Shown piece by piece: positions 4,390 to 20,962 of a stretch of 24,848 bases of DNA. The notes below the pieces were generated by a model. That model saw only the letters and a program-made list of their open reading frames with translations. It had not been told where the DNA came from and ran no database searches. The first letter of the stretch is position 1; every line of letters begins with the position of its first letter. Both the position numbers and the translations under genes were made by a program. Source of the stretch: an uncultured Dehalococcoidaceae bacterium (lineage in GTDB: Bacteria > Chloroflexota > Dehalococcoidia > Dehalococcoidales > RBG-16-60-22); contig CAZXYV010000002.1 of assembly GCA_964645025.1 (NCBI GenBank), positions 1-24,848 on the forward strand, in the 5' to 3' direction.

Positions 4390-4461
4390 GCACTTAAAGG
4401 TCGGAAATGTATCCGGGTTAGCTGCTTACATTCGTTTTCCCGGATGATACAGGGGGTAGCA

Positions 4462-5001
4462 ATGGCACGACTAAAGAGGACAAAAGAAAAGATTATTAAA
4501 AAAGCCGAGGAACTGGGGACAGAATACGAGGCTAAATACAAGGGCTGTGGTCAGTGCACTTTTTTGGCAATAGCTGATGCTTTGAGGTGGGGAGGCTTGG
4601 AAATTATCCCGAAGGATATGGAAGAAAGACTTTTTTCAGGGATATGCGTTCTGACCGGTGGTGTCAGTATGACCGGAGATGGTACCTGCGGTGCCGTCGC
4701 CAGCAGTGTTTTGTTGATTGGTATTGCCTTGGGCATTTCACGTGAGGGTCAGGACAACAGCGTTTTACGCAGGGGTTGCGCCACCGTCCGGGATACGCTT
4801 CTGGCCAAATATTATAAGGAATATGGTTCCATTCTCTGCAAAGACGTCCAGCGTAAATATTTCGGGAAGGCCTGGGACCTGACAAGTGATGAGATGAGTC
4901 AGGAGTTTCTGGGAGTGACACAGGGGTGCACTATAATGCAAACGGCAAAGTGGGCCACCGAGATTATTCTGGATGAACTGGAAAAGGCAAAACCAGGGTA
5001 A
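4462..5001 (+). CDS. C_GCAxxG_C_C family putative redox-active protein
   Basis: Cys pattern GCGQC ... TCGAVAS ... LCKDV ... GC. Start set at ATG 4462 after AGGGGG (track start 4444). Confidence 0.8.
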   Translation: MARLKRTKEKIIKKAEELGTEYEAKYKGCGQCTFLAIADALRWGGLEIIPKDMEERLFSGICVLTGGVSMTGDGTCGAVASSVLLIGIALGISREGQDNSVLRRGCATVRDTLLAKYYKEYGSILCKDVQRKYFGKAWDLTSDEMSQEFLGVTQGCTIMQTAKWATEIILDELEKAKPG

Positions 5002-5053
5002 ATAGCTTAGAGCCTCCTTGCCGTTAGTCTGGTCATAGTGCAAGCAAATCAGT

Positions 5054-5078
5054 CATCCCCATGTTTGTACAGTGGTAA
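5054..5078. repeat. Dispersed junction motif, copy A (att-like)
   Basis: CATCCCCATGTTTGTACAGTGGTAA, 20/25 identical to copy B at 14840-14864. Minus strand reads ...ITTVQTWG*. Confidence 0.7.
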
Positions 5079-5092
5079 TTCGGGATGTGATG

Positions 5093-6637
5093 CTATTTTT
5101 GGTCTTCATCGGTGACACGGACGAACTGGTAAAGCTGCTCGGGCGTTGAATAGTAGCTTTCGTCTTGCAGCAAACTAAGGTTTTCGCTGAAGTACGTATT
5201 GAGAATAACTCTAAAGGAATTGAGCGGCGTAATGGACTCATATAGCATATGATAATCGCTGTCAGGCAGGAAATATGTATTAAGTATATTCATCCTCTCG
5301 TTCAGTTGCACCTCGGTCATTTCATCGAGCGTGTCTCCGACCTCTATGGTAGCACTCGACCCGTGGTCTGATTGCATGACGATAATGGGCGCGGTCCGGG
5401 ATTTCAATAGTATTTCATCAATCGTCTCTCTAAGCTTCTTGTTGATAAAGATTAATTGCTCCACGTATCCCTTCTGATAGTACTGTGCCTCATTTGCGGC
5501 GTAAAATTCCACCCCAATAGCTGGGTCTCCCTTACTGTCAAACACGAAAGGAGTGTGCACCCCTCGCGAATGGACGAAGACAAATTTTGGTCCGGTTATC
5601 TCAGTTATATTACTCAGTGTATCAAACACATACAGCGAGTTCCTTCTGATATCGGCGCCCCATATAACCCTGAAAGGTTCCAGTGCCGTGGTTTTGAGCA
5701 GAGCAACCGCAAAATTTGTCATCCCCAACCCGAACGCTCCATGGCCCGGTAGATACACTTCATCATATTTATCAATGCCCTCGCTAAAAATACCATCGGA
5801 TATATAAATGCAATAGTAGCCATTCGCCTTTAAGAATTGCATCAGCCTATTGTTTGAAATAAGCTTCCTCAGAATCGAATAATCGCCTGCTGCCATGTCA
5901 TTGGCTGTTATCAGGTTGTCAAGATATTCCATATTCAAGGATGATGAGATGGACAGGGCGGTATGAGCATAATTAGACCGGCTTTTATCAGCAACGTAGA
6001 ACCCTTTGTCAGCCAGATAACCGAGAAATTCGCTGTTATCGTAGCCAAAGATATCCTTCAGGGTGCTTTGTCTCGCGTAGGAATCCACTATTATATAGTA
6101 GATATCCGGCGATTGAACGCTTGCTCTTGAAGCCGGTTTTTCGATACCGTTACCGGGGGCATCGGTAGCGGTAGCAATGCCGGCATTAGCAGACATGCTA
6201 AGCCCCTGGATGGCAATATTGATGATGGAGATTCCAATCAGAGTGAAGGCTACAACATTCAAGGTCCTGTGAAGCTGGGAGAAGCCAGTGTGTGCTCTGA
6301 TAATCAAAACGGAACCGGAGATGAAGACAGCCAGCCACAGAAACCCCAGGAAGATAGTGCCTTTAACCGGTCCCAGTACCGGAGCAACGTTAGAGGAAAC
6401 ACGCCCGTAAGAAAAAAATAGCACCAGTAGCAGGGACGTTACCAGTCCACTCTTGCCATAATCCCTGGTTATCACCTTCAAACATAGAAATACTACTGAT
6501 GTACCCAGAGTCACGGCGACTATCGGTAGCAGTATATCGATGACCGGTACTTCGTCGATATTATGGGCAAAGAGAAAAAGTATCGGAAATAAGCCGAACA
6601 AGAAGGGGTGGATAATTCGTGGAACTGCTATTTTCAT
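5093..6637 (-). CDS. Membrane-anchored alkaline-phosphatase/sulfatase-superfamily protein (LtaS/EptA-like architecture; NoeB-like by context)
   Basis: About 4-5 N-terminal TM segments, then PDIYYIIVDSYAR, SNYAHTALS, FVHSRGVHTPF and QSDHG metal/nucleophile motifs. ATGA overlap with the upstream gene's stop at 6634-6637. Confidence 0.75.
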   Translation of the reverse strand: MKIAVPRIIHPFLFGLFPILFLFAHNIDEVPVIDILLPIVAVTLGTSVVFLCLKVITRDYGKSGLVTSLLLVLFFSYGRVSSNVAPVLGPVKGTIFLGFLWLAVFISGSVLIIRAHTGFSQLHRTLNVVAFTLIGISIINIAIQGLSMSANAGIATATDAPGNGIEKPASRASVQSPDIYYIIVDSYARQSTLKDIFGYDNSEFLGYLADKGFYVADKSRSNYAHTALSISSSLNMEYLDNLITANDMAAGDYSILRKLISNNRLMQFLKANGYYCIYISDGIFSEGIDKYDEVYLPGHGAFGLGMTNFAVALLKTTALEPFRVIWGADIRRNSLYVFDTLSNITEITGPKFVFVHSRGVHTPFVFDSKGDPAIGVEFYAANEAQYYQKGYVEQLIFINKKLRETIDEILLKSRTAPIIVMQSDHGSSATIEVGDTLDEMTEVQLNERMNILNTYFLPDSDYHMLYESITPLNSFRVILNTYFSENLSLLQDESYYSTPEQLYQFVRVTDEDQK

Positions 6638-8004
6638 GGTCTCTTCGCCTGCATAAGATACAGGGTTCTCTGTGAGTTTCTGACATTTACAGATTCACGT
6701 ATCAAAAATAGCTTCTCGAATTCGCTCTGAAAAGCTTCCTTGGTATAGCCGGTGAATATATCCTCTCTTGTTGTCAGAAGCCTTTGTACCTGAGAATCGG
6801 TCTTGGGAATGAACTCGACTATAAGGGAGTGGCAGATTGCATGGAAAAACTCGGCGAGCTCGCTTAGCGAGACATTGTTGGAGATGACCATATGGTGAAC
6901 CAGGGCTAGGGCAATTACTGTATTGGTCGGACCGCGCTCCATCAAAGACATCCTCTCCTTATTCTGCCAGCCGATGCTCGGGCTGGGATTGGTTAAGTCA
7001 AGTACAAGGGGAAGTATGTTTGTTTCGTGGTTGCGGGCACATTCGAGGTAGTTTTTTTCGACCGCCGCCGGGTCAATATCAAAGGATATGGTTTTTGTGC
7101 CCCCGTTAGCCGCCAGACGACTGAACATCCCTACGTTGGCTCCGAGATCCCATACGCTCTCCGGGCAAATCGACTCCAGGAATCCGGCAACAATCTGCTT
7201 TTTATGCTCAAGCGCATCCGCAGAATAGTTCGTATCCTCGTAGTAATCTGCCCACTCCGTACCCGCCGGACGCCACTTGAGTTGTTTGATAGCGGACTTC
7301 AGGTTGCCCACAAGACCGAGCAGTGACACTCGTTTCATTCTATAGCTGCCCACAGCCGTGCCCTTATCGGCAAAGTGTTTCTGGCTTTTAGCATGAAGGT
7401 GAATATGAGAAAGCGAAGAAAATTTTAGCCAGCTCGCTAATGGCAGTAGCGAGCTGGCTAAATCCAGGGGGACGCCATCCATGTAGACCCTCAACAATTG
7501 GTTCAATCGTACATCTTTTTGCGCCATCAAGGTCAAGGGTGCCAGGAAATGCTGACAGAACTGCTTGTAGGCAACCCATGGATACCCTTCCCGGTAGTTT
7601 TCAAAGGAAAGGGTATCCATGAGTACCGGCCTGCCTTCACGAAACTGTATATTATAGGCACTGCAATCCTTCAACGTCATTCCGAATTCCAGTGCTATCC
7701 TTTCAATCTCAAGCGTGGTTAGGGCGGCGGCTTTTAGCTGACTGAAACACCATTCGTAGGGATACGATATAAACCCGATGCGCTCTGGCTTCAATACTCT
7801 ATGGGCGTCCTTTGATTGCTCACAGTCAATATCAACCTCGGTGTGAGGAATCAGCAACCTGGCGCCGGTCAGTTTATCATAGAGGCCTGAGTTCATTAAG
7901 CGGTCATAATGTTCCTGATAGACAGGGTTTACCCGGCGATATATCTCATTATCATGTACGAACAGAAAGCCACTTGGATCACGGAATGACCCAAAAACGC
8001 TCAA
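6634..8004 (-). CDS. Class I SAM-dependent methyltransferase with an N-terminal kinase-like domain (NoeA-like)
   Basis: C-terminal VWDLGANVG (motif I), SFDID and ALALVHH. N-terminal SFRDPSG and LKDCSAYNI...LMD. TTG start overlaps the TGA of the upstream peptide gene (TTGA, 8001-8004). Confidence 0.8.
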   Translation of the reverse strand: MSVFGSFRDPSGFLFVHDNEIYRRVNPVYQEHYDRLMNSGLYDKLTGARLLIPHTEVDIDCEQSKDAHRVLKPERIGFISYPYEWCFSQLKAAALTTLEIERIALEFGMTLKDCSAYNIQFREGRPVLMDTLSFENYREGYPWVAYKQFCQHFLAPLTLMAQKDVRLNQLLRVYMDGVPLDLASSLLPLASWLKFSSLSHIHLHAKSQKHFADKGTAVGSYRMKRVSLLGLVGNLKSAIKQLKWRPAGTEWADYYEDTNYSADALEHKKQIVAGFLESICPESVWDLGANVGMFSRLAANGGTKTISFDIDPAAVEKNYLECARNHETNILPLVLDLTNPSPSIGWQNKERMSLMERGPTNTVIALALVHHMVISNNVSLSELAEFFHAICHSLIVEFIPKTDSQVQRLLTTREDIFTGYTKEAFQSEFEKLFLIRESVNVRNSQRTLYLMQAKRP

Positions 8005-8240
8005 CTTACCGGTTTCTCCCTATTGGTCTTGGAGAATATACCACTCAAGAACCTCCTAACTTTCCTCCAATACACCTCAAGCATGAAAAGGGCTCCGACA
8101 ATACTACCGATAACAATCTGTAGAATAATGCTACCTGTCCCGGGGTCGATATAGTTGTGGATACCTAGCGCCGATGGCGTTAAGTGTCCGCTGCAGAGAT
8201 ACGCTGAAATATGCAATCCTGTTTCCAATAGTTCAACCAT
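8001..8240 (-). CDS. Small membrane protein with YIDPGTGS motif
   Basis: GGAGGT (minus strand, 8246-8251) precedes the ATG. YIDPGTGS is followed by a hydrophobic helix and a basic WRKVRR tail. Stop overlaps the next gene's start. Confidence 0.75.
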   Translation of the reverse strand: MVELLETGLHISAYLCSGHLTPSALGIHNYIDPGTGSIILQIVIGSIVGALFMLEVYWRKVRRFLSGIFSKTNREKPVS

Positions 8241-8478
8241 AATTTACCTCCCCAAGTGTCAGCTGGGCTTCTTGCTGTACTGACCTGCCCCCAGTAGTTG
8301 TACTCCTGGTTAGCCGCTCTCCCACGACATAGCCTACAATCTCACTGGTAAACAGATCCTTATCTGGGATTTCCCGTATCAACTCGTAGTGAGCTGACCC
8401 TCGTCCCTCTTTAGTCTTAATACCAAATGATATACCCATCGCATCCGATTGTCTCCACGCCACTGGGATACCTAGCAT
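8233..8478 (-). CDS. Possible hypothetical protein (81 aa) at the head of the minus-strand operon
   Basis: ATG at 8478 preceded by AAAGGT, downstream of a near-consensus promoter; its stop overlaps the YIDPGTGS gene start by 8 nt. No recognisable motif, so it may instead be an untranslated leader. Confidence 0.3.
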   Translation of the reverse strand: MLGIPVAWRQSDAMGISFGIKTKEGRGSAHYELIREIPDKDLFTSEIVGYVVGERLTRSTTTGGRSVQQEAQLTLGEVNYG

Positions 8479-8528
8479 CTCTACACCTTTGCCTGTATCC
8501 CCCGACACTAAACAGGCTAATTGGCGTA

Positions 8529-8557
8529 ATCATAGCACTTTTTATGACATTTGTCAA
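8529..8557 (-). promoter_or_regulatory. Sigma70-type promoter for the minus-strand operon
   Basis: Minus strand TTGACA-17 nt-TATGAT with TGn before the -10. A TGACA-TT-TGTCA palindrome (8545-8556) overlaps the -35. Confidence 0.7.
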
Positions 8558-8817
8558 AATTTCTGCTCAGTATCCCCCAGACAACTCATAGCCTCCCGGG
8601 AGTTCAGCTCCGGTACCCCGGAACACCTGTTTAGCAAACCAGAAGTAGCTCTCCACCCGAAAAAAGACGATACTTTCCCTATCTTCTTCATCTGGCTGCC
8701 TTTGTGTGCCCTCAGTGTGCTAGGAAAATGCTCAAACCTGCGGATTAAGGGCAAAGCATGCCTGTTGCTTCCGCTATTGTAGTGTTTCATGTAAATAGAA
8801 GAGTAGCATATTGATAA

Positions 8818-8846
8818 TTGACAAAAAATGTCTACTATGCTAACAT
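8818..8846 (+). promoter_or_regulatory. Sigma70-type promoter for ABC cassette 1 (divergent from 8529-8557)
   Basis: TTGACA (8818-8823), 17-nt spacer, TAACAT (8841-8846) preceded by TGC. Confidence 0.6.
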
Positions 8847-9102
8847 TCCACAGCGTCTAAAAACTAATATGCCGATTTATTCAAAATATAATTCAACATA
8901 CAAGATTAATTTATTAGAATTATGTAAAAATACCATTGGACGCCATGATTTAAGCGATAAGCCCGGGAACATATTATTTTATAATCTATATCTTACGTCA
9001 TAAAAGACAGAGGGAGGTGAAAAAAGGCCAGAGACACGATAGTTCTACGGCTCATCCGAATGAGAAGTGAATAAACATTATTATTACGGAGGTGGTATAA
9101 AA

Positions 9103-10740
9103 GTGAAAAAGGTAACCATTCTGATAATTACTTTACTGGTAGCTGTGCTAATCTTCGGTGCTTGCTCTGAAGCAACCCCTACTACGTCCGCGCCAACCAC
9201 AAGCGCACCTACTACATCCGCACCAAAAACGACTGCCCCAACTACGGCTGCACCAACTACGGCTGCTACTACCACAAAAGCGCCGACCACAACTGCAACA
9301 AGCGCCATAACAAAGGGCGGTACTTTAAAAATAGCTGACCCGGTTTTTCCGAGTAACTTAGGTTGGACGGCAGATCCCGCCTGGGGGCGTGGTGGTCACG
9401 CCCCGGCCCTTTTCTTCGATACTCTCCTCAAGCAAGATAGCAACGGGAATACCGGGCCTAACCTCTGTTCGGCATTCACGGTCGCCCCGGACAAGAGCAC
9501 CATCACGCTTACCCTGAGAAAGAGCGTCAAGTTCCATGACGGGTCGGACTGGAACGCCGCCACGGCCAAGTGGAACCTGGATATATTAATCAGTGCCAAA
9601 TTGGGTGATTACAAGGAATTCAAATCGGTAGACATCGTGGATGACAACACGATAAAAATAAATATAGGTACCTACACCAATACCCTGCTCACCACCCTGT
9701 CCGGCACTTACGTCATCTCTAAAGCCGCTTATGATAAAAACGGTGATGCCTGGATGAAGTTGAACCCGGTCGGGACGGGGCCTTTCATCTGTACCAAGTT
9801 CGAGTCCGAAGTCTCCGCCAAAGGCGTCAAGAATCCCAACTACTGGCAGCAGGGCAAGCCCTACCTGGATGCCGTGGAGTTTTTTAAAATTAATGACACC
9901 ATGACCAGGTCAGCCTCTCTCCAGGCAGGGGAAGTGGACATCATCGGCGGTGACCTCTCCAAGGTGGAGTATGACCTCCAGCAAAAAGGATTCGATGTTG
10001 TCAAGGGCTATATCTCGGTCTATACCCTGATACCCGATAGCAAAAATACTAACTCGCCCTTCGCCAATCCCAAAGTACGCGAGGCAATGGACTATGCCAT
10101 TGACCGCGATAATCTCGTCAAGGCCCTCGGCTATGGTTTCTGGGCTACTACCTACCAGTTTGCTCTTCCCGGAACATCCGCCTTCAACCCGGCCCTGACG
10201 CGGCCTTATGACCTGAATAAAGCGAAACAGTTGCTGGCCGAGGCCGGTTATCCCAACGGTCTCAAAGCTTCGTTTACCGTAAATTCGGCGGTAAGCAACC
10301 GGGACGCCGTGACTGCCATACAATCATCCCTGAGCAAGGCAGGGATCACGCTCGACATGCAAATAGTAGACGGTACGACGGCCAACAACTACTACGCGAA
10401 TGGCTGGACCAATGGTTTACAGGGTGCCGCGTCATCGATAGGGGCCAACGTGAACGCTTCTCTTACCGCGTTGACCAAGGACGGCCCGACGTGGTACGTC
10501 AGCCTGGACAAGACTGAAGACTTTTATAACCTGTACCGTGCCTCGCTTACCTCGCCGCAATACGATGTTGCGCTGGTGCAAAAAGCGATAAAGTACTGGT
10601 TTGATAACGCGACCTTTAACTGCATTTATGCCGTTTCACGCGGTGTGGTCCTGCCGCCGTGGGTGCACGATACCGGTTTCTACACCCGCCACCGTTTCTG
10701 GTACTGGGAACCGGCCGATACCTGGATGAGCAAGCATTGA
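9103..10740 (+). CDS. ABC transporter substrate-binding lipoprotein, family 5 (dipeptide/oligopeptide/nickel type)
   Basis: Lipobox LIFGAC, TLRKSVKFHDGSDWNA, PVGTGPF, YWQQGKPYLD, KVREAMDYAIDR, KAKQLLAEAGYPNG. Start set at GTG 9103 after GGAGGT (9088-9093) instead of 9067. Confidence 0.9.
   Translation: MKKVTILIITLLVAVLIFGACSEATPTTSAPTTSAPTTSAPKTTAPTTAAPTTAATTTKAPTTTATSAITKGGTLKIADPVFPSNLGWTADPAWGRGGHAPALFFDTLLKQDSNGNTGPNLCSAFTVAPDKSTITLTLRKSVKFHDGSDWNAATAKWNLDILISAKLGDYKEFKSVDIVDDNTIKINIGTYTNTLLTTLSGTYVISKAAYDKNGDAWMKLNPVGTGPFICTKFESEVSAKGVKNPNYWQQGKPYLDAVEFFKINDTMTRSASLQAGEVDIIGGDLSKVEYDLQQKGFDVVKGYISVYTLIPDSKNTNSPFANPKVREAMDYAIDRDNLVKALGYGFWATTYQFALPGTSAFNPALTRPYDLNKAKQLLAEAGYPNGLKASFTVNSAVSNRDAVTAIQSSLSKAGITLDMQIVDGTTANNYYANGWTNGLQGAASSIGANVNASLTALTKDGPTWYVSLDKTEDFYNLYRASLTSPQYDVALVQKAIKYWFDNATFNCIYAVSRGVVLPPWVHDTGFYTRHRFWYWEPADTWMSKH
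9181..9300 (+). repeat. Degenerate 15-nt tandem repeat (8 units) encoding a Thr/Ala/Pro linker
   Basis: Units translate TTSAP TTSAP TTSAP KTTAP TTAAP TTAAT TTKAP TTTAT, shortly after the lipoprotein Cys. Confidence 0.85.
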
Positions 10741-10822
10741 TGCTCTGTAATCTTTAGACGAAGGAAAATAAATACTTTATAGCGCCGGCTGAAGAGTAAA
10801 AGAAAAGGAAAACTAGAATAAA

Positions 10823-10873
10823 GGACAGGGAAAAGTATATAAGAATAAGAGGAAAACATACTTTTCCCTGTCC
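10823..10873 (+). other. Intercistronic stem-loop (16-bp perfect inverted repeat) between SBP1 and permease
   Basis: GGACAGGGAAAAGTAT (10823-10838) / ATACTTTTCCCTGTCC (10858-10873), 19-nt loop. Could be an attenuating terminator or an mRNA-stabilising hairpin. Confidence 0.75.
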
Positions 10874-10990
10874 CATCCTCTTTTCAAGAAAGAAGATAAA
10901 ACGAGACTCTATCTCTTTTTATTTTTTGCTATGTTAGGACGTAGCCGGTATCGGTTTGAGTTATAATTCAGTTTTTAAAAGAGATTAATT

Positions 10991-11947
10991 ATGACTACGT
11001 ATATCATTCGTAGGCTGATACAGGGTTTCTTCATCCTCATTCTGGTCACCCTCATCGTGTTTCTGGCTATGAGGCTGCTTCCGGGCGACCCCATTTACAT
11101 GATATTGGGTGAGGCTGAGCTATCCAACATGACGAGGGAAGCAATTGACGAAATAAGGCATGAGTATGGACTGGATAGACCCTTGCTGGTGCAGTATGTT
11201 GACTGGATAGGGGGTATTTTTCATGGTGATTTTGGTATTTCAATCGTTTATGATTACTCACCGCTGAGAGTAATAGGCAAGGCAGTGCCCATTACCCTCA
11301 ATTTAAGTTTACCGGCTTTTTTTATCAGCTTCATGATTGGAATTCCGACGGGCGTGGTCTGCGCCATCAGGCGGGGCACATGGATTGATACGGTAGTGAC
11401 TATTCTGGCTAACATAGGTATTACCATTCCTATTTTTTGGCTGGGTACCATGCTCATCTATATGTTCGCCCTGAAACTCCACTGGTTACCGGTCCAGGGA
11501 TATACACCCCCTCTCGTTGATCTGGTGAAGAACATCCGCCAGATTATCATGCCCGTTTTTTGCCTGGCTATTTTCACCATATCCGCCACGTCCCGGCAGA
11601 CCCGGTCAAGTATGCTGGAGGTCATGAGGCAGGACTATATCCGTACGGCATGGTCCAAAGGCTTGAAGGAGCGCAAGGTGGTAATGAAACATGCGCTGAA
11701 AAATGGCCTCATCCCGGTGGTCACGTTATTGGGCATGGGTTTCAGTCACATCATTGGCGGCTCGGTCCTGGTAGAGACCGTATTTAATATCCGGGGTGTG
11801 GGCCTAACGCTGGTCAGCGCCGTCTTCGCGCGTGATTACCCGATTGTTCAGGGTTACGTTTTCTTTATTGCCATCACGGTATTAATCGTGAATTTGATTG
11901 TTGATATTTCTTACGGGTGGCTTGACCCAAGGATACGGTACGGTTAA
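10991..11947 (+). CDS. ABC transporter permease, DppB/OppB type
   Basis: YIIRRL...RLLPGDP...GLDRPLLVQY, EAA-loop region DYIRTAWSKGL, VETVF, RDYPIVQG. Confidence 0.92.
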   Translation: MTTYIIRRLIQGFFILILVTLIVFLAMRLLPGDPIYMILGEAELSNMTREAIDEIRHEYGLDRPLLVQYVDWIGGIFHGDFGISIVYDYSPLRVIGKAVPITLNLSLPAFFISFMIGIPTGVVCAIRRGTWIDTVVTILANIGITIPIFWLGTMLIYMFALKLHWLPVQGYTPPLVDLVKNIRQIIMPVFCLAIFTISATSRQTRSSMLEVMRQDYIRTAWSKGLKERKVVMKHALKNGLIPVVTLLGMGFSHIIGGSVLVETVFNIRGVGLTLVSAVFARDYPIVQGYVFFIAITVLIVNLIVDISYGWLDPRIRYG

Positions 11948-11956
11948 GGAGCGGAC

Positions 11957-12856
11957 ATGGCCGCAAATAATGATACATTACGCACAGATTCCGGATTACT
12001 GGCACCGCACACCAGCGAGTTAAAGCGTTTCCAAAGGGTATTGTTTAGCCGGGGCCTGGTGGTATTTGGTGTGATAATCATCCTGCTCGTCATTGTAGTC
12101 GCTGTTTTTGCTCCTCTGCTGGCGCCTTATGACCCGTATGAACAGTACTGGGACCAAACCTTGCTTAATCCTTCATCACATCACCTGCTCGGCACCGATT
12201 CTCTCGGCAGGGACGTCTTAAGCCGTTTAATTTTCGGTTCGCGAAACTCCCTGATGGTCGGTATCGTCGCTCTTGGCATTGCCGCGATATTCGGTATGTC
12301 TATGGGGCTCATTGCCGGATATTTCGGCCGCTGGATAAACACCATTATTATGAGAATTATTGATGCCATGATGAGTTTTCCCATGATTTTACTCGCCCTG
12401 GTAATTGCAGCTTTACTCGGTGGCGGCATGAGGAATGTGATGATCGCTTTAGGCATCGCCATGTTACCCGGGTACGCCAGGCTGATGTGCGGCCAGGTGC
12501 TCTCCGTCAAGGAGAATGACTATGTACTGGCAGAACACGCCGCCGGCGCCGGCGACCTGCGGATTATGCTGCGCCATATACTGCCTAATTGTTTTCCTCC
12601 GTTAATAGTTATGGTGACAATGCAAATCGGGGCAGCGATACTGGCCGAAGCCGGCTTGAGCTTTCTTGGAATCGGCATCGAACCTCCCGCAGCCGCTTGG
12701 GGTCTCATGGTTGAAGATGGACGTATGTATCTGATGACCAATCCTATCCTTTCTTTTGCCCCCGGTCTGGCTATCATGCTTGTTGTATTTGGTTTCAATA
12801 TGGTTGGCGATGGCCTGCGTGACGCTCTTGACCCAAGGCTAAGGGGCACAATTTAA
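11957..12856 (+). CDS. ABC transporter permease, DppC/OppC type
   Basis: HLLGTDSLGRDVLSRLIFG, DYVLAEHAAGA, EAGLSFLGIG, GDGLRDALDPR. Confidence 0.92.
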   Translation: MAANNDTLRTDSGLLAPHTSELKRFQRVLFSRGLVVFGVIIILLVIVVAVFAPLLAPYDPYEQYWDQTLLNPSSHHLLGTDSLGRDVLSRLIFGSRNSLMVGIVALGIAAIFGMSMGLIAGYFGRWINTIIMRIIDAMMSFPMILLALVIAALLGGGMRNVMIALGIAMLPGYARLMCGQVLSVKENDYVLAEHAAGAGDLRIMLRHILPNCFPPLIVMVTMQIGAAILAEAGLSFLGIGIEPPAAAWGLMVEDGRMYLMTNPILSFAPGLAIMLVVFGFNMVGDGLRDALDPRLRGTI

Positions 12857-12864
12857 CCGGATGA

Positions 12865-14628
12865 ATGATGAAAAAAGTTGTTAAAATTTCTAAACCAGGA
12901 GAGTATAGGGGTTACTCCCGAGAAATATACCCTGAAGTAGTCTGCACCTCCAGGTATCTCAATATCAGAGGCATCAACATCGCCGTTGATATCTATCATC
13001 CCAGCCAAGACGGTGTTAACCCGATTGATGCTCCGTATCCCGTTATTTATCAACATTATGCCTATAATAGAGGCAGGATTAGTAAAGACAATATCCATTT
13101 TCTGGTCAAACATGGTTATGTAGTGATAATAGATGACGCCAGAGGTACCGGTGCCTCTTTTGGATGCAAGCCATACCAGTTCAACCGTGAAGAAGCGCAA
13201 GATGCCAAAGAGCTGATTGAATGGGCAGCGGCCCAGCCGTGGTGTGATGGGAAGATAGGCATGTTCGGCGGCTCACAAATGGGGGGAACCCAGCTGCTGA
13301 TTGCCGCAACTAAGCCGCCGCATCTGGTTTCTATCATGCCTGCCGTGACTACTATTGACCAGTTCATGCGCCATCCTAACGGCGTCCACTTGAATATGCC
13401 TGGTAAACCTGGAATGCCAATGCCTCCTGAAACAGCCAAACCCGTTGACGCGGATACTTCCGGCAAGATGGCGGCGGAGGCTATAAAGGTTCATCAGCCC
13501 AGCCCCGGGTTATATCAGATGTGGCCGGGTCCTCATAACTTCCGTAATAGCTATATGCCGGAAATTAAAGACATGCCGTCAATAGTAACCAGCCCGATCA
13601 CTTATAGCGATGAGATTAAAAGCTCGGGTGTTAAGATGTATAACGTTGCTGGGTGGTACGACCAGGCGCCTGCAAGCCAGCTTGGAGCCTGGAAACTATG
13701 GGGTGGGAAGCTGATAATTGGTGCCTGGGTTCATGAAATGATGGTAGACGTAGAAATACCCAAAGTCGAAATACTTCAGATTGAGACCCTGCGGTGGATG
13801 GATTTCAATCTTAAAGGAATCCAGAATGGTATTGATAAAGAGCCTCCAATATACTATTACACTATCAATGCACCTAAAGGCAAGGAGTGGAAATTCACTT
13901 CGCATTGGCCGCTGCCCAACCAGACACTAACAAAATACTATTTCGATGCCGGACCTACCAGAACCGTAGATTCAATTAACGATGGCGGTTTAAGTACGTC
14001 TTCTTCCGGAATTTCAAACAGTGATATTTACGAGGTAGACTATTCAATTAATGTGTTTAATGGGAAATTCAGAGAAAACGCGCGTTCCTGGGACGGAGAT
14101 ATGACCGAGGGAACCGATAGGAAAGGCCTGACCTTCACTTCGGAGCGTCTGTACGCTGATACAGAGGTTACTGGCCATCCTGTAGTTCATCTTTGGGTAT
14201 CTTCTACCTCTCAAGATGGAGACTTCCATGTATTTCTCGAAGAGGTTAACGGCGAGACCAATAAATCACGGTTTGTTACCAACGGCATGATAAGAGCTTC
14301 TAATCGTGCGCTTTCAACCAGATCACCCTGGACCGACCTGGGGCTTCCATATCATCGATGTTGGGACGTCGATGCTGAACCTCTCACTCCGGGTGATAAG
14401 GTTGAGCTTGTCTTTGATCTGTATCCCATATCTTATGTTTTTCGACGGGGAAATCGCATAAGGGTAACTGTTACGGGAGCTAATGCCCCCCTTTACCCGG
14501 GTATCAAAGAAAATCCCGCACCTAAGGTATCTGTTTATCACTATGAGGAGTTTAATTCGTATATCGAGTTACCTATAATACGGGGGAAGGTCAGTTGCAG
14601 TCCACAATCTTTGGAACGATATCGCTAA
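12865..14628 (+). CDS. CocE/NonD family alpha/beta hydrolase (peptidase S15-like)
   Basis: HGYVVIIDDARGTGASFG, WCDGKIGMFGGSQMGG (nucleophile elbow), GWYD, GAWVH, and a C-terminal PepX_C-like domain (EVTGHP...VHLWVSS...FRRGNRIRVTV). Confidence 0.88.
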   Translation: MMKKVVKISKPGEYRGYSREIYPEVVCTSRYLNIRGINIAVDIYHPSQDGVNPIDAPYPVIYQHYAYNRGRISKDNIHFLVKHGYVVIIDDARGTGASFGCKPYQFNREEAQDAKELIEWAAAQPWCDGKIGMFGGSQMGGTQLLIAATKPPHLVSIMPAVTTIDQFMRHPNGVHLNMPGKPGMPMPPETAKPVDADTSGKMAAEAIKVHQPSPGLYQMWPGPHNFRNSYMPEIKDMPSIVTSPITYSDEIKSSGVKMYNVAGWYDQAPASQLGAWKLWGGKLIIGAWVHEMMVDVEIPKVEILQIETLRWMDFNLKGIQNGIDKEPPIYYYTINAPKGKEWKFTSHWPLPNQTLTKYYFDAGPTRTVDSINDGGLSTSSSGISNSDIYEVDYSINVFNGKFRENARSWDGDMTEGTDRKGLTFTSERLYADTEVTGHPVVHLWVSSTSQDGDFHVFLEEVNGETNKSRFVTNGMIRASNRALSTRSPWTDLGLPYHRCWDVDAEPLTPGDKVELVFDLYPISYVFRRGNRIRVTVTGANAPLYPGIKENPAPKVSVYHYEEFNSYIELPIIRGKVSCSPQSLERYR

Positions 14629-14772
14629 ACCAGAGGTTATCCCAGTTATTGCAACCGAAGACTGGATGAAAGTTGTTAGCAAGAAGTTGTAGTACGCGAC
14701 TTCCGTGACACCTCTCCCTCAACTGTTGTAACTACATTCCGCACGCTAAGGGATTAATTTTTACTGGCAGAA

Positions 14773-14997
14773 TCAACATTTCACTAAGGGTGTTACATAA
14801 TCCAACCTGAGTGGTTCATTTTTATTGCCAACTAACATACATCCCGATGTTCGTTCAATGGTAGGTAAATCTAATTCTAATGGATTGACACCTCTAATCT
14901 CTAGCTTATCACGGCTGGCATAGATTCCTATATCCAAGGCGTCAAAGGCCAGCCTTTTTATCTCTGGGGTGCGGTTCTGGAGTATGGTTACTAACAA
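14773..14997 (-). pseudogene. Probable remnant of the 3' end of a large serine recombinase gene
   Basis: KRLAFDALDIGIYASRDKLEIRGVNPLEL-LPTIERTSGC resembles, from memory, C-terminal tails of Dehalococcoidia recombinase-family proteins. Two in-frame stops lie directly upstream and there is no catalytic domain. Not verified by search. Confidence 0.5.
14840..14864. repeat. Dispersed junction motif, copy B (att-like)
   Basis: CATCCCGATGTTCGTTCAATGGTAG. Shares ACATCCCGATGTTC exactly with copy C and 20/25 with copy A. Confidence 0.7.
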
Positions 14998-15148
14998 TTA
15001 TCAAGCGGTTTTAGTAACGATGTACGAAGAGTTGTAGAGACAACGTATCGGTCACTCTAAAGCGGGTTATTAAACTTAAGTAATTTAAATTTGCGAAATA
15101 GAATATCATATATAATATCTTATTGGATAAATCACACGTAATGCAGGT

Positions 15149-15177
15149 TTGACATTGATTATTTACTATTATATAAT
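15149..15177 (+). promoter_or_regulatory. Perfect consensus sigma70 promoter for ABC cassette 2
   Basis: TTGACA (15149-15154), 17 nt, TATAAT (15172-15177). Confidence 0.85.
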
Positions 15178-15312
15178 ACTGTGCGAGCTATGAAAGATTA
15201 CCCCCATCAAATCCAAAAACACATACCTGCTTCTCTGGAGAAAGGCGGTGAGATAAAGCGTAAATTGAGACATCACATATATTATCCGCAAATTCAAAAA
15301 GGAGGGAACAAA

Positions 15313-16926
15313 ATGAGGAAGATTCTATTCATCGTCTTTGCGGTTGTTTTGGTGAGCGCGTTGATTTTTGGCAGCTGCGCCAAATCAACCACACCAACCG
15401 CCACCACCCCGGCAGCAACCACCCCGGCGGCAACCACCCCGAAACCGACCACACCGGCACCTACCACGGTAACACCGAAATCCGGCGGCACCCTTAAATA
15501 CGGCGAATCTCTCTGGTACGGGGCCACCCTCGGCTGGCCCGGAGACCCGGGCTGGCTCGTCACGTCGCCCGTGGTCAATGTCTTCGCCGACACTATCCTT
15601 TCGGTGGATACCAAGGATATCATTCATCCGAACCTGGCCACCGCCTGGAACGTATCCTCGGACCTCAAGACCATCACGCTTACTTTAAGACCGGGCATTA
15701 AGTTCCATGACGGGTCGGACTGGAACGCCACGGTATGCAAGTGGAACCTCGACCTGCTGGTCACCCCTAAATATGGCGATTATGCCTATGTAACCTCGGT
15801 TGATATCGTCGACCCCTCCACTGTCAGGCTCAACCTGAATCAGTACAGCAACAGTCTCCTTACCACCATCGGCAGCACCTTTGTCGTTTCCCAGCAGGCT
15901 TATATCGACCATGGCGCCAACAAGGACGCTGAGACCTGGATGCGGGCGAATATCGTCGGCACCGGGCCTTTCAAGCAAACTGCGGTGACTCCCAACGTAT
16001 CTATCACAGGCATCAGGTTTGACGGTTACTGGGGCGGTAAGCCGTACCTGGACAGTATTATCATGACCCAGATTGGCGACCAGATGACCAGGGCGCAGGC
16101 CCTTCAGGCAGGCGAGATTGACATTGAAGGCGGCAACCCCACGAAAATCGAAGCTGATCTTTTAGCCGCGAATAAGAACTTTAAAATCCAGGCGGACTAT
16201 ATCGCTATCTCCTCACTTGTTCCTGACAGCAAGAACACTGCCTCGCCGTTCTCTAACCTCAAAGTTCGCCAGGCTGTCAGCTATGCTTTCGACCGTGACT
16301 CTATCGTCAATAGCCTGGGTTACGGCTACTGGGTGACTACCAGCCAGTACGCCGTGCCGGGCACGGTCTCTTATAACAACGCTATTCCTGTCATCAAACA
16401 GGACCTGACCAAGGCCAAGCAGCTGCTGACCGAGGCCGGCTATCCCAACGGCTTCACCACCTCGATTCTCGGCTCCTCCGTGACGAGCTTCAAGGACATG
16501 TTGGTGGCGGAGCAGGGCATGATGGCGAAAATCGGCATCACCGTTAATATCAACATCATCGACCATCCTTCTTATAACAACGCCATCAATAAAGGCTGGG
16601 ACGGTTTAGCCGCGGCCGGCAAGCTCATCGACGCTAACATGGGCTGGGCTCTCGGCACCAATTTTGGGCAGAAAGTTGTTTCAAACGCCAGCTTGGCCAA
16701 GACCGACGATTTTCAGGCCTTGTTAAACGCCGCTCTGGCATCAAAGGACTATGACCCGGCCTTGATAGGCAAGGTCGTGAAGTACATGGACGATAACCAG
16801 ACGGTCATCGTTCTTAACGCCACCATGCGCGGCCAGGTGATGGCGAACTACGTGATGGACCCCGGTTTTTACACCTACGACCGCGCCACTTACTGGAACC
16901 CGGCCAAAACCTGGTTGAACAAGTAA
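15313..16926 (+). CDS. ABC transporter substrate-binding lipoprotein, family 5 (paralog of 9103-10740)
   Basis: Lipobox LIFGSC, LRPGIKFHDGSDWNA, VGTGPF, YWGGKPYLD, KVRQAVSYAFDR, KAKQLLTEAGYPNG. Start set at ATG 15313 after GGAGGG; the track start 15181 lies at about the predicted transcription start. Confidence 0.9.
   Translation: MRKILFIVFAVVLVSALIFGSCAKSTTPTATTPAATTPAATTPKPTTPAPTTVTPKSGGTLKYGESLWYGATLGWPGDPGWLVTSPVVNVFADTILSVDTKDIIHPNLATAWNVSSDLKTITLTLRPGIKFHDGSDWNATVCKWNLDLLVTPKYGDYAYVTSVDIVDPSTVRLNLNQYSNSLLTTIGSTFVVSQQAYIDHGANKDAETWMRANIVGTGPFKQTAVTPNVSITGIRFDGYWGGKPYLDSIIMTQIGDQMTRAQALQAGEIDIEGGNPTKIEADLLAANKNFKIQADYIAISSLVPDSKNTASPFSNLKVRQAVSYAFDRDSIVNSLGYGYWVTTSQYAVPGTVSYNNAIPVIKQDLTKAKQLLTEAGYPNGFTTSILGSSVTSFKDMLVAEQGMMAKIGITVNINIIDHPSYNNAINKGWDGLAAAGKLIDANMGWALGTNFGQKVVSNASLAKTDDFQALLNAALASKDYDPALIGKVVKYMDDNQTVIVLNATMRGQVMANYVMDPGFYTYDRATYWNPAKTWLNK
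15388..15477 (+). repeat. Degenerate 15-nt tandem repeat (6 units) encoding a Thr/Pro linker
   Basis: TTPTA TTPAA TTPAA TTPKP TTPAP TTVTP after the lipoprotein Cys. Confidence 0.85.
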
Positions 16927-17007
16927 CCCGGCTGATAAACTGGTCTTCGGCGGGAACGTAACCGCCAGCATTGAAGAAGACGTAAATAGAAAATAGCTAA
17001 ACTAAAA

Positions 17008-17056
17008 GACGGGAAGAGATTTATAGACCTGACATGTTTATAAATCTTTTCCCGTC
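17008..17056 (+). other. Intercistronic stem-loop between SBP2 and permease
   Basis: GACGGGAAGAGATTTATA (17008-17025) / TATAAATCTTTTCCCGTC (17039-17056): 18 bp with one G-U pair, extendable by 3 bp into the loop. Confidence 0.75.
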
Positions 17057-17084
17057 GTTATATAATGGTGGTTAGAGGTCTTTA

Positions 17085-18041
17085 GTGACAACGTACATCA
17101 TTCGTAGAATCATATTGGCCGTAATCGTCCTGTTCCTGGTGACGATGATAGTATTTTTTGCGATGCGCCTTCTGCCCGGCGACCCTATTTACATGATCAT
17201 GACTTCAGGTGAACTGTCCAATGTTACCGAAGCGCAAATTCAGGCTCTCAGGCACGAGTTCGGACTGGATGAACCCATCATCGTCCAATATTTCAACTGG
17301 GTAAGCGGCGTTTTCCGGCTTGACTTCGGCACTTCAATAATGCAGCGCCGCTCGCCATTAGCTATGATCGGCCAGGGTGTCCCCGTAACCCTTAATTTAA
17401 GCCTGGTGTCCTTTGTCATCAGCCTTATCATCGGCGTTCCCGCAGGCGCGATTTGTGCTATCCGCCGGGGCACCTTGATAGATACGGTGGTAACGATATT
17501 AGCGAACATCGGCATTACCGTGCCTATTTTCTGGCTGGGTACTATGCTTATTTATCTTTTTTCACTACAACTCCACTGGCTGCCGGTGCAGGGTTATACG
17601 TCACCTTTCACGGACTTAGTAAAGAACCTCCGGCAGATTACTATGCCGGTTTTCTGCCTGGCTATCTTTCCGATAGCCTCAATAACGCGGCAGACCCGGT
17701 CGAGCATGCTGGAGGTCATGCGGCAAGACTACATCCGTACGGCATGGTCCAAAGGCCTGCAAGAACGGCTGGTGGTGATGAGACACGCCTTGAAAAACGG
17801 CCTCATCCCGGTGGTCACGCTCTCCGGTATGGGCTTGAGCATCATCCTGGGCGGTTCAGTCCTGATAGAGACCGTTTTTAATATCCAGGGCGTGGGACAA
17901 ATGCTGGTGAACGCCGTCTTTGCCCACGACTATCCGGTGGTTCAGGGTTTCATCCTGTTCGTCGCCGTGGCCGTGTTATTCATCAATCTGCTGGTGGATG
18001 TTTCCTACGGTTGGCTCGACCCGAGGATACGGTACGGTTAA
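17085..18041 (+). CDS. ABC transporter permease, DppB/OppB type (paralog of 10991-11947)
   Basis: Same length (318 aa) and same motifs: RLLPGDP, DYIRTAWSKGL, WLDPRIRYG. Confidence 0.92.
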   Translation: MTTYIIRRIILAVIVLFLVTMIVFFAMRLLPGDPIYMIMTSGELSNVTEAQIQALRHEFGLDEPIIVQYFNWVSGVFRLDFGTSIMQRRSPLAMIGQGVPVTLNLSLVSFVISLIIGVPAGAICAIRRGTLIDTVVTILANIGITVPIFWLGTMLIYLFSLQLHWLPVQGYTSPFTDLVKNLRQITMPVFCLAIFPIASITRQTRSSMLEVMRQDYIRTAWSKGLQERLVVMRHALKNGLIPVVTLSGMGLSIILGGSVLIETVFNIQGVGQMLVNAVFAHDYPVVQGFILFVAVAVLFINLLVDVSYGWLDPRIRYG

Positions 18042-18053
18042 GGAGCGCTTCTG

Positions 18054-18950
18054 ATGACGCAATCGGGTATTGTGTATAGTGAATCCTTAATAGCCGCGCC
18101 TCATACCAACGAGTTCCGGCGTTTCCTGCGGGTATTGTTCGGCCGGGGGCTGGTAATATTCGGCGCCGTCATTATATTGCTGGCTATTTTAACAGCCATT
18201 TTCGCGCCCTACCTGGCGCCTTACGACCCCTACGAGCAGAACCTGGCCGAGTCGCTAGTCAAACCCTCGGCGCACCACCTGCTGGGGACCGATTCTCTCG
18301 GCCGCGATACGTTGAGCCGGCTTATCTTCGGCTCACGGAACTCGCTGCTGGTCGGTCTGGTGGCGCTGGGCATCGCTGCCTCTATCGGTATCATCATGGG
18401 CCTATTCGCCGGTTACCTGGGCGGTTGGGTATACAATGTAATTATGAGATTTATAGACTCCCTGATGTGTTTCCCGATGATATTGCTGGCGCTGGTCATC
18501 GCCGCACTGCTGGGCGGTGGAATTAAAAACGTGATGGTGGCGCTGGGGGTGGCCATGCTGCCAGGGTACGCCCGCCTGATGTGCGGGCAGGTGCTTTCCG
18601 TGAGGGAAAATGACTACGTGCTGGCCGCCAACTCCGAAGGCGCCAGTAACCTGCGCATCATGTTCAACCACATTCTGCCGAACTGTTTTCCGCCGCTTAT
18701 CGTACTGATGACCATGCAGATAGGCGCCGCGATTCTGGCCGAGGCTGGTCTCAGCTTCCTCGGCGTCGGTATCGAACCGCCGGCCGCCGCCTGGGGTCTC
18801 ATGGTCAACGACGGGCGTTATTATCTACTTTCCAATCCCCTACTCTCTTTTGCGCCCGGCATGGCCATCATGCTGGTTGTGTTTGCTTTCAATATGGTGG
18901 GGGACGGGCTACGGGACGCCCTGGACCCCAGACTAAGAGGAATGCTTTAA
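18054..18950 (+). CDS. ABC transporter permease, DppC/OppC type (paralog of 11957-12856)
   Basis: HLLGTDSLGRDTLSRLIFG, EAGLSFLGVG, GDGLRDALDPR. Confidence 0.92.
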   Translation: MTQSGIVYSESLIAAPHTNEFRRFLRVLFGRGLVIFGAVIILLAILTAIFAPYLAPYDPYEQNLAESLVKPSAHHLLGTDSLGRDTLSRLIFGSRNSLLVGLVALGIAASIGIIMGLFAGYLGGWVYNVIMRFIDSLMCFPMILLALVIAALLGGGIKNVMVALGVAMLPGYARLMCGQVLSVRENDYVLAANSEGASNLRIMFNHILPNCFPPLIVLMTMQIGAAILAEAGLSFLGVGIEPPAAAWGLMVNDGRYYLLSNPLLSFAPGMAIMLVVFAFNMVGDGLRDALDPRLRGML

Positions 18951-19107
18951 TTAAAAACGAATAATTCCGCCAAGCACCGCAACTGACAATTCACGCATCT
19001 TGTCACCTTTACTCAAAATGTTAAATAACCGAAGCTCCATCTGCCTGGTATCGTCCGTCACTATTAGCTGGTGCTAAGATACTGAAACATACGCATGGAA
19101 AGGCAGA

Positions 19108-19130
19108 CATCCCGATGTTCATAGTGGCGA
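19108..19130. repeat. Dispersed junction motif, copy C (att-like, 2-nt deletion relative to A/B)
   Basis: CATCCCGATGTTCATAGTGGCGA. One minus-strand frame reads *TSGCLPFHAY. Confidence 0.6.
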
Positions 19131-19137
19131 TAGGTGA

Positions 19138-19167
19138 TTGATGCCACCAGAAGGATTACTGTATAAT
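19138..19167 (+). promoter_or_regulatory. Possible sigma70 promoter
   Basis: TTGATG-18 nt-TATAAT about 30 nt upstream of the TTG start at 19197. Confidence 0.45.
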
Positions 19168-19196
19168 CGAGTATCATTTTTAAAGGAGGTACGATT

Positions 19197-19334
19197 TTGA
19201 AAATAAGCGGCGTATGGATGGGCGTAATAGCAATTATTCTCGGTATCCTGGTCCTGGTGTTACCGGACATCATCAGGTTGACAGTAGGTGTGGGCCTTAT
19301 CGTTCTGGGCATACTGGCGCTGGTGAAAAAATAG
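19197..19334 (+). CDS. Small two-helix membrane protein, DUF3096-like (45 aa; absent from the ORF track)
   Basis: AAAGGAGGT then TTG. Translates MKISGVWMGVIAIILGILVLVLPDIIRLTVGVGLIVLGILALVKK*, flanked by a promoter and a terminator. Confidence 0.75.
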   Translation: MKISGVWMGVIAIILGILVLVLPDIIRLTVGVGLIVLGILALVKK

Positions 19335-19363
19335 CGGAGGTAATATTTTACACTACCTTCACC

Positions 19364-19399
19364 AAAGAGGGGGCGCGCAATTCCGCCCCTTCTTTTTTT
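19364..19399 (+). terminator. Rho-independent terminator
   Basis: GAGGGGGCG / CGCCCCTTC stem, 8-nt loop, followed by T7 (19393-19399). Confidence 0.8.
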
Positions 19400-19980
19400 A
19401 TCTCGTACTCAACACAACCACCGCGCTCCGGTTATAGCCACTTAGTACTATCATGACCGGTACTTTCTGACTATTGATACTAAGGCCAGGTGATTTAAAA
19501 TGTAAATAATATAAAAAACGCCCCGGGGAAAAACCGTAATAATTAATAATATTGTAATACTTTACCTCTTGATGTTATGACTATTTAATGTCTTGTTCAT
19601 TAGAATTAAGACAGACGAAGGGGTAAAGTTCGAAGAAAAATCAGGGTGACGACGATGAGCAAGATAAATGGGATTCTATTTCATGTAAGATGGGTTTTCA
19701 TGTCTCCTGAGAAAAGGTACCTGTACCTATGGCATCGCACGCAGCGAACCATGAAGCAGTCGGCCTATACCGGTCAAGTGTCGCTTGCGTCCCGGTAGTT
19801 GTCACTACCTTCGGCACGCCAATCAACGCAACTTTCTAAAGTTTTTCTTTTGCGTCTTTCTTTTATTACCGCGGTCCCGCTATACATTTTCACACCCATA
19901 CCGGCGGTTGCCAGCGCCTTCGAGGGTTGTTACAATGAATTAAAATCATTAAACCGCGATAGATGTGGTATATTTAAAAA

Positions 19981-20292: not shown

Positions 20293-20349
20293 GCCGGCCG
20301 CGAAATATCGCCGGAATTCCCCGCAATATATTCCTTGATGTAAAATAAA

Positions 20350-20959: not shown

Positions 20960-20962
20960 AGC

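Follow-up and report, generated by a model that had tools for sequence, protein, structure and literature searches.

How did three co-oriented copies of a repeat of about 25 bp come to lie at the junctions between functional modules of contig CAZXYV010000002.1, from an uncultured Dehalococcoidaceae bacterium? The window analysed here is the entire contig on record, 24,848 nt, and an earlier note on it had proposed that the repeats, here called A, B, and C, are attachment (att) scars left by a large serine recombinase (LSR) that delivered stacked islands. We find that the repeats copy the end of dnaN, the gene for the beta sliding clamp DnaN, which is itself absent from the contig, and that intact LSR genes in relatives overlap identical sites at their 3' ends, which bears out the proposed origin of the scars. 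Our reading, to which we give a probability of about 0.85, is that integrative elements which are moved by a CcrB-like LSR and target the last dnaN codons left A, B, and C behind as relic att sites, with islands stacked downstream of dnaN as a result.

Sequence of the repeats

The motif spans positions 5054-5078 (A), 14840-14864 (B), and 19108-19130 (C). A and B are identical at 20 of 25 positions, B and C have the exact 14-mer ACATCCCGATGTTC in common, and a 9-mer at 5080-5088, 1 nt past the stop codon of A, reads TCGGGATGT on the plus strand and is an inverted ACATCCCGA on the minus strand (the end of the left arm, CC, and GA). All of these coordinates, sequences, and matches were exact in the earlier note when read against the sequence. 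On the plus strand, the core of A (ATC CCC ATG TTT GTA CAG TGG TAA) and that of B (ATC CCG ATG TTC GTT CAA TGG TAG) both encode IPMFVQW-stop, the DnaN tail, and the five differences between them are all synonymous, each affecting a third codon position or the stop codon. C has an intact left arm and ATC-CC-G ATG TTC (IPMF), followed by a degenerate right half with 2 nt fewer than in B.

By our own estimate, chance would give a sequence of 24.8 kb about one exact 14-mer repeat and some four pairs that match at 20/25. A consensus pattern built from the three sites found 3 matches against 0.44 expected, a count reached in 1 of 100 shuffles, although this test was post hoc. The flanks of A, B, and C show no similarity past ∼50 nt when aligned, and the repeats are therefore not copies of a larger repeat or of a miniature inverted-repeat transposable element, a candidate that we exclude.

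A profile of ∼60 nt was built for nhmmer from 22 extra copies of the dnaN tail in other metagenomic loci, with no window site included. It matches the window at A, B, and C only, always on the plus strand, with E values of 1e-8 to 2e-8. Copy A occupies 5028-5080 (E = 1e-8), with a P-type left arm and the central CC at 5058-5059; copy B occupies 14834-14867 (E = 1.9e-8), with CC at 14844-14845; and copy C occupies 19078-19130 (E = 1.6e-8 for a match at 19078-19122 that covers model positions 7-51), with CC at 19112-19113. Since the profile is independent of the window and its matches elsewhere are linked to dnaN, as shown next, the three-repeat observation is confirmed as real and beyond chance, and the motif is not a general one in these genomes.

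The dnaN 3' end and its copies

Relatives were sought in species-representative genomes with the C_GCAxxG protein whose gene adjoins A, which gave 31 Dehalococcoidales/Dehalococcoidia loci, and a metagenome scan with the DnaN of locus L001 (labels of this form denote the loci of relatives compared with the window) gave 80 dnaN loci. In L001 the gene ends in GTC ATG CCC ATG TTT GTA CAG TGG TAG, that is, VVMPMFVQW-stop, and this DnaN C-terminus is found in all 80 dnaN loci with the gene end on the contig. In about 20 of them the tail recurs one to three more times, at distances of 0.5-7 kb downstream of dnaN and co-oriented with the gene. Counting only the 41 dnaN loci that have at least 2 kb of downstream sequence, 24 carry extra copies, an LSR, or both. 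The earlier note had spoken of a reusable hotspot; its stacked-island model is supported, but it had not recognised the motif's plus strand as the dnaN 3' end.

The profile finds 31 matches in 276 kb downstream of dnaN, all on the plus strand and none on the minus strand, one inverted match in 241 kb upstream of dnaN, and none in 416 kb of Dehalococcoidales DNA without dnaN; a transcription-factor site common across the genome, named in the earlier note as one outcome that would overturn its proposal, is not what this distribution describes. Only the last seven dnaN codons are ever copied, always behind a left arm that is foreign to dnaN and belongs to one of several recurrent subtypes. Directly after dnaN itself, 12 loci have a terminator hairpin ∼21-30 nt past the gene end, an arrangement that we read as the unoccupied state, and 13 have a recombinase tail. 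The sole upstream match lies in L032, from the same organism as L001, at 2008-2062 on the minus strand: this inverted copy (SDIPMFVRW-stop) is situated between Ham1-like and lipoprotein genes 2.8 kb upstream of dnaN and has a left arm of the same subtype as window A. Partial copies, consisting of the left arm and half of the core, occur 20-300 nt upstream of full att copies in L054 (4063-4107 and 6241-6278), L064 (3637-3679), and L095 (4549-4593), and look like stubs of deleted units.

The earlier note expected an imperfect dyad about a central dinucleotide, and such a dyad is present, centred on CC. Among the extra copies, complementarity about CC reaches 12/14 and averages 8.8/14 (as in TGGACAAACATC-CC-GATGTTTGTCCA), compared to a mean of 4.2/14 for dnaN-type tails. 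Immediately left of CC, dnaN-type tails have G (81 of 81) and extra copies have C (21 of 22). In the right arm, only third codon positions of the DnaN reading vary. Hybrid junctions switch partners no more than 1-2 nt from CC. From the dyad and these junctions together, we infer that CC is the crossover dinucleotide.

The recombinase and its tail

The strand opposite the DnaN reading leads to the enzyme. Two LSR genes of L094 run antisense to dnaN and towards it, with 3' ends that overlap the dnaN stop and the next copy. Open LSR frames of 503-596 aa abut dnaN in L044, L058, L072, L081, L084, and L085, and those of L058 (503 aa) and L084 (510 aa) are placed as in L094, facing dnaN. The proteins scanned from L058, L084, and L094 contain the Pfam domains Resolvase, Recombinase, and Zn_ribbon_recom; among relatives, dnaN-abutting proteins with all three domains measure 503-537 aa. 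The best relative with a solved structure in the PDB is SPbeta SprA (E = 7e-23), and the best NCBIfam match is CcrB, at 156 bits far below its cut-off of 900.

In ∼17 loci the recombinase frame runs through the antisense of the dnaN tail, with its stop codon typically 5 nt to the left of the proline-codon CC (e.g. in L084). Where the gene abuts dnaN, the protein ends in tails such as TTARTWA, TIEQTSA, or TTGQTSA, each followed by the stop, of the general form T-x-x-T-[SW]-A. Where it faces the left arm of another element, the tail is longer (e.g. TIAQTSGCLPFHAYILA-stop), and on an element-element or circular junction it would gain about 10 aa (e.g. SGCLPFHAYILA-stop). The G-to-C change to the left of CC accounts for this, as it removes the TGA stop codon of the recombinase and so lengthens the tail. 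As we read it, both strands of the motif carry coding, the DnaN tail on the plus strand and the LSR tail on the minus strand.

LSR remnants of every length are found in place among relatives, and the window fits this pattern. The recombinase that the earlier note had presumed decayed is represented at B by an LSR C-terminal remnant at 14845-14982 on the minus strand, which lies in the open reading frame (ORF) 14773-14997 and reads through att B. By BLASTP, this ORF aligns with the L094 LSRs across 46 aa at 61% identity (E = 2e-13) and across 56 aa at 43% (E = 5e-11), and tblastn with LSR C-termini retrieves the remnant with E values down to 3e-14. We read B as a junction, a hybrid of the P-P' type, at which a left arm meets the 3' end of a recombinase gene. 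At C, the minus strand of 19086-19118 encodes a tail relic of the long form, TSGCLPFHAYV (E = 2e-4), that is identical at 10 of 11 residues to the tail TSGCLPFHAYI of a full-length L094 LSR. At A, the minus strand of 5053-5076 encodes TTVQTWG-stop, of which TTVQTW matches at 6 of 6 residues the tail of the LSR remnant beside the L001 dnaN, weak evidence on its own. The related minus-strand tails described in the earlier note (TTVQTWG-stop, TIERTSGCM, and TSGCL) are thus real and match LSR C-termini. Pfam search of all large window ORFs reveals no recombinase domain; the remnant at B is recognizable only through relatives.

Breakpoints in relatives

The sites divide the window into a unit to the left of A (E0), a unit from A to B (E1), a unit from B to C (E2), and a right flank. 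As the earlier note had predicted, synteny with relatives breaks at the sites: in L001 at A, in L112 at B and C, and between L039 and L040. The L001 locus, whose GCAxxG protein is 92% identical in amino acid sequence to that of the window, has the order dnaN, LSR remnant, GCAxxG paralogue, LysR, substrate-binding protein (SBP), livHMGF, URO-D, GCAxxG, att copy, G-rich terminator, and kdp genes. Window positions 1-5010 are colinear with L001 6213-10564 at 78% nucleotide identity, and the second L001 tail copy (VMPMFVQW-stop) comes right after the orthologous GCAxxG gene, in the place of window A. The terminator after it is of the same kind as that after dnaN in the 12 loci mentioned above, and nothing to the right of A is common to L001. 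By this layout, dnaN and an att copy delimit E0 as a discrete unit, and A closes this liv/URO-D/GCAxxG unit on the right.

Locus L112 does the same for E2 and for the right flank. Its left part consists of moaA, moaC, dnaN, a block of marR, SBP, SBP2, and two permease genes, an att copy at 13736-13792, and a terminator like that after dnaN. There follow a 2.1-kb unit (CDP-alcohol phosphatidyltransferase, MamF-like, and Rce1-like genes), a decayed relic near 15850, and genes for a 45-aa peptide, EF-P, EpmA, an MmeI-like protein, and GlgC. The SBP2 proteins of L112 and the window are 92% identical, and E2 is 80.6% identical in nucleotide sequence to L112 10086-13777; in L112 it stands directly against dnaN and ends at the att copy. 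The 5' end of the second window SBP gene matches the first of the two tandem L112 SBP genes, which implies that one SBP gene was lost or fused in the window. The right flank of the window keeps synteny with L112 15847-21596, a stretch that follows dnaN on its contig, and is on this ground the chromosomal flank downstream of dnaN.

A three-way alignment at C follows the L112 att copy at 13736-13792 on the left and the L112 relic near 15850 on the right, with the switch at ATCC|GATG. By this alignment C is a hybrid of two sites that are separate in L112, and the difference is a 2.1-kb insertion or deletion with att sites at both ends. L112 also has, at 18240-21260 between EpmA and GlgC, a 1006-aa MmeI/Eco57I-type methyltransferase (Pfam N6_Mtase and Eco57I) that is not in the window; presumably part of a restriction-modification system, it marks an unrelated indel of the conserved flank.

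Loci L039 and L040, whose dnaN genes are 97% identical, have different cargo (∼0.6 and ∼1.2 kb) between the dnaN stop and a common att copy and flank. A unit framed by the genuine dnaN tail and a second copy of it is present in L001, L058, L112, and L124. E0 and E2 have diverged from their relatives about as much as the flanking core genes (78-81% nucleotide identity), and look old and vertically inherited since insertion. The claim of the earlier note that A-B and B-C are separately acquired islands thus stands for B-C, a discrete unit that in L112 lies against dnaN and ends at an att copy, but not in full for A-B, which was never seen as an independent unit and may be composite.

Proposed mechanism and alternatives

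In the mechanism that we propose, attB would be the end of dnaN (ATG CCN ATG TTY GTN CAR TGG stop), followed in its native state by the terminator hairpin ∼21-30 nt after dnaN seen in the 12 loci. The motif itself is read directly from the gene; attB is its proposed role. In the attP brought by the element, an imperfect inverted repeat would be centred on CC, bases one and two of the proline codon, where strands would be exchanged. Since attP itself supplies, in its right arm, the final six codons of DnaN together with the stop, integration would leave DnaN intact, and the original dnaN tail would end up at the distal end of the element, preceded by that element's left arm. Within the element, the LSR gene would take the end next to dnaN and run antisense to it, its last 7-17 codons lying across the site, as they do in relatives. 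Repeated integration at dnaN would build an array of co-oriented tail copies, each of them the boundary of a unit. For the window this predicts the order dnaN (off the contig), E0, A, E1, B, E2, C, and the chromosomal flank (EF-P and its neighbours), with the recombinase reduced to the 46-aa remnant at B and the tail relics at A and C. C itself would be the product of recombination of two att copies, either through a deletion in the lineage of the window or through an insertion in that of L112. The window units are probably ancient, fixed, and now immobile.

Several points weigh against this account. The window has no intact recombinase, and no recombinase remnant on the right side of A. Its dyads are weak (6/14 at A and 9/14 at B) and C is 2 nt short in its right half, from which it follows that A, B, and C are probably inactive now. 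With dnaN off the contig, the anchor of the array is drawn from L001 and L112, and recombination at CC is deduced from sequence. E1 is absent from both L001 and L112 and was not found as an independent unit. Public sequencing runs, which offered only short Logan contigs from related strains, showed no excision or deletion joint of A-B or B-C, no circle, and no empty site. In these runs, loose contig ends occur at C (∼19086 and 19119-19120) and immediately left of B (14833), which would fit other att contexts.

Could the repeats have a simpler origin? Chance similarity, or dnaN pseudogene fragments made by ordinary duplication without site-specific recombination, would suit the window taken alone, where the 14-mer repeat and the 20/25 pair are near random expectation by our own estimate and the shuffle test is marginal. 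It does not suit the independent profile, which finds each site at an E value of ∼1e-8, nor the restriction of copying to seven codons behind a foreign left arm, the overlap of the sites with recombinase 3' ends in ∼17 loci, and the switch of partners at CC in the C junction; we give it next to no weight. Nor do we see much future for an operator or regulatory palindrome (ACATC-CC-GATGT) that would control the neighbouring transport genes. B and C do stand upstream of plus-strand genes and contain a short dyad, but A lies between convergent genes, and among relatives the matches are co-oriented, at synteny breaks, and ahead of unrelated genes. Moreover, in the related DNA scanned, 31 of the 32 profile matches are downstream of dnaN, with none in the 416 kb that lack this gene, and variation is restricted to third codon positions of the DnaN reading; this explanation seems to us extremely improbable.

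A closer competitor accepts site-specific recombination but denies that the units were ever autonomous elements: they would be cassettes without recombinase and with a single att-type end, inserted in trans at the dnaN end by an integron-like platform. Arrays of small units (0.6-2 kb, with one or two genes) and well-kept sites in L054, L110, and L065 speak for it, as does a 71-nt left arm that L054 and L110 share at 91.5% identity, despite different cargo and dnaN genes of only 74% identity. Yet the left arms encode the long recombinase tail (GCL[PS]xHAY) in antisense, as expected if each unit once had an LSR gene across its circular junction, and LSR remnants of all lengths are found in place. 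In addition, cassette genes run in both orientations, and no recombinase gene is anchored beyond dnaN, where moaA and moaC lie instead. We judge it improbable that the units began in this way. A related and bolder idea, that the dnaN-tail sites make up a working integron-like serine-recombinase platform, is in our view a little less improbable, if still unlikely. In it, small units that lack the LSR and keep an intact left arm and core would still be moved in trans, and the recombination-rewritten C-terminus of the integrase would sense the integration state and bias direction without a separate directionality factor. Autonomous LSR elements that target the dnaN end are the origin that we prefer for A, B, and C.

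Spread of the element family

The L058 recombinase has 803 relatives at E ≤ 1e-40, and the dnaN-abutting tail form, T-x-x-T-[SW]-A, is present in 61 of the best 120 clusters of these relatives. One cluster comes from cultured Dehalococcoides mccartyi and has 52 members; those listed include both complete proteins (504-505 aa) and shorter pieces (60-332 aa). CP179927.3, a complete D. mccartyi genome, has a 504-aa LSR gene that shares 26 nt with dnaN; 8.85 kb away is another att copy with a 71-aa ORF that we read as an LSR remnant, the same anatomy as at window B. The dnaN-abutting element of this genome (L124 2604-11515) contains a ParE-family toxin gene, a MazG-like gene, and an insertion sequence (rve), and the next unit starts with the 71-aa ORF, the putative recombinase remnant. 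On L126, a contig related to L124, a weak ParD-like ORF adjoins the ParE-family toxin gene.

The L058 element is a 7.1-kb unit at 5387-12504, between the dnaN tail and an att copy, with the intact 503-aa recombinase and five further ORFs that include a 370-aa protein (weak endonuclease-like PHROG match) and a 569-aa NACHT-like NTPase. No recognizable phage or conjugation genes are present in this unit, and the att pattern had no match in 2.9 million viral contigs.

Relation to known systems

The closest known system is that of the ssrA islands of Dehalococcoides (2011, PMC3146451), which lie in tandem downstream of a single-copy essential gene and have as their boundaries direct repeats of ∼20 bp of its 3' end. 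Their CcrB-like serine recombinase of ∼500-540 aa is encoded on the reverse strand beside attL, and many islands have no integration module and are seen as accreted or fixed (PMC3146451). The dnaN elements are alike in bacterial class, in their tandem islands at a gene end, and in their CcrB-like LSR. They differ in that the target is the protein-coding dnaN rather than the tmRNA gene and in that the site codes on both strands; moreover, the six-gene integration module of the ssrA islands (DsiA, RecF-like, ParB-like, Mom-like, and others) is not seen in L058. The window itself is not an ssrA island: tRNA, tmRNA, and Rfam scans of it gave no match, and its repeat is the dnaN tail, so that we reject this identity.

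For a protein-coding target, the classical analogue is SCCmec of staphylococci, which integrates through CcrAB or CcrC at the 3' end of rlmH (orfX), keeping the coding of the gene and leaving direct repeats. Like the elements described here, it uses an LSR to put cargo into the last codons of a conserved protein gene, and it allows composite or tandem cassettes, but the LSR match to CcrB falls far below the cut-off (156 against 900 bits), a single recombinase gene takes the place of a pair, and target and host are different. The SCCmec/rlmH case is also summarized in PMC3146451. Serine integrases of phages (SPbeta SprA, TP901-1, Bxb1, and phiC31) are similar in domain architecture, in their short att sites with imperfect dyads, and, with CC as the putative crossover point, in their non-palindromic central dinucleotide, whereas no phage genes were seen in the L058 element, no viral contig matched the att pattern, and no directionality factor was identified.

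The concept of accretion of integrative and cis-mobilisable elements (cited in PMC3146451), by which repeated site-specific integration at one gene end builds tandem arrays, is illustrated by ICESt1/ICESt3 at the fda 3' end. Internal units that lack a recombination module are a further likeness to the arrays described here. Systems of the ICESt1/ICESt3 type use tyrosine recombinases, in contrast to the serine recombinase found here; no tyrosine integrase occurs among the window ORFs or the proteins of relatives scanned against Pfam. Integrons likewise consist of small cargo units separated by a recurring recombination site beside a fixed anchor, but here the repeat is a dual-coding host gene end rather than a folded attC, and the cargo genes run in both directions.

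In the open-access literature we found no description of dnaN as a natural target of a serine recombinase, and the one hotspot named there for Dehalococcoides and Dehalogenimonas is ssrA, including in a 2026 comparative study of Dehalogenimonas. The process is thus of a known kind, while the target gene appears to be undescribed. The dnaN end would give Dehalococcoidia a second recombinase-driven hotspot besides ssrA, in lineages that range from uncultured peat and sediment bacteria to cultured D. mccartyi, and the array would explain why gene content between dnaN and EF-P differs so strongly among relatives. For annotation, the ∼60-nt profile offers a marker that delimits acquired units in fragmentary metagenome bins. 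The family also supplies natural combinations of LSR, attB, and attP with a defined central dinucleotide. A dual-coding site must preserve both the clamp C-terminus and the integrase tail, which bears on recombinase specificity and possibly on self-regulation. The islands of the window itself would represent old, fixed cargo (transporters, a hydrolase, and envelope enzymes) rather than an active element.

Contents of the window units

The right-hand part of E0 (1-5027, plus strand) encodes, by Pfam, branched-chain amino-acid ABC permeases and ATPases, a URO-D/MtaA-like methyltransferase, and the C_GCAxxG_C_C protein. E2 (14868-19077, plus strand) begins with the recombinase remnant, followed by a second Opp-like SBP gene and two permease genes (Pfam). 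The conserved chromosomal flank (19131-24848) contains, again by Pfam, genes for a 45-aa membrane peptide, a 103-aa membrane protein, EF-P, and EpmA, and, on the minus strand, GlgC and a DUF4129 protein.

E1 (5081-14833; Pfam and NCBIfam) is defined by exclusion only. On its minus strand are genes for a sulfatase-like membrane protein and a 456-aa protein together with small ORFs; its plus strand encodes an Opp-like SBP, two permeases, and a CocE/NonD (S15) hydrolase. For this hydrolase, the nearest homologues (75-80% identity) are single genes in unrelated contexts without att sites, and hence carry no information on the unit. A candidate inverted and degenerate half att site, held with low confidence, lies at 8908-8950 on the minus strand: it consists of CGTCCAATGGTA and a flank that resembles the right flank of B, and in a repeat search it pairs over 35 nt with 14852-14886 (74% complementary). 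Neither the nhmmer profile nor tblastn with LSR tails matches this half-site. Together with the inverted 9-mer at 5080-5088, it brackets the minus-strand module of the sulfatase-like and 456-aa proteins. E1 may be composite or rearranged, with this module as an inverted unit, a suggestion that nhmmer and tblastn do not support.

The two Opp-like operons, at 9067-12856 and 15181-18950, are paralogous (∼70-73% nucleotide identity), 6094 nt apart, and composed of one SBP and two permease genes without ATPase genes; many cross-mappings between them were seen in the public runs. Exact-protein searches with four window proteins retrieved either nothing or only a 1.1-kb contig. Finally, the small ORFs and intergenic DNA at 8400-8750, for which Rfam gave no match, are covered by many contigs from related sediment and wetland metagenomes at a depth (up to ∼100) several-fold that of the neighbouring sequence, which suggests a multi-copy or widely conserved element.

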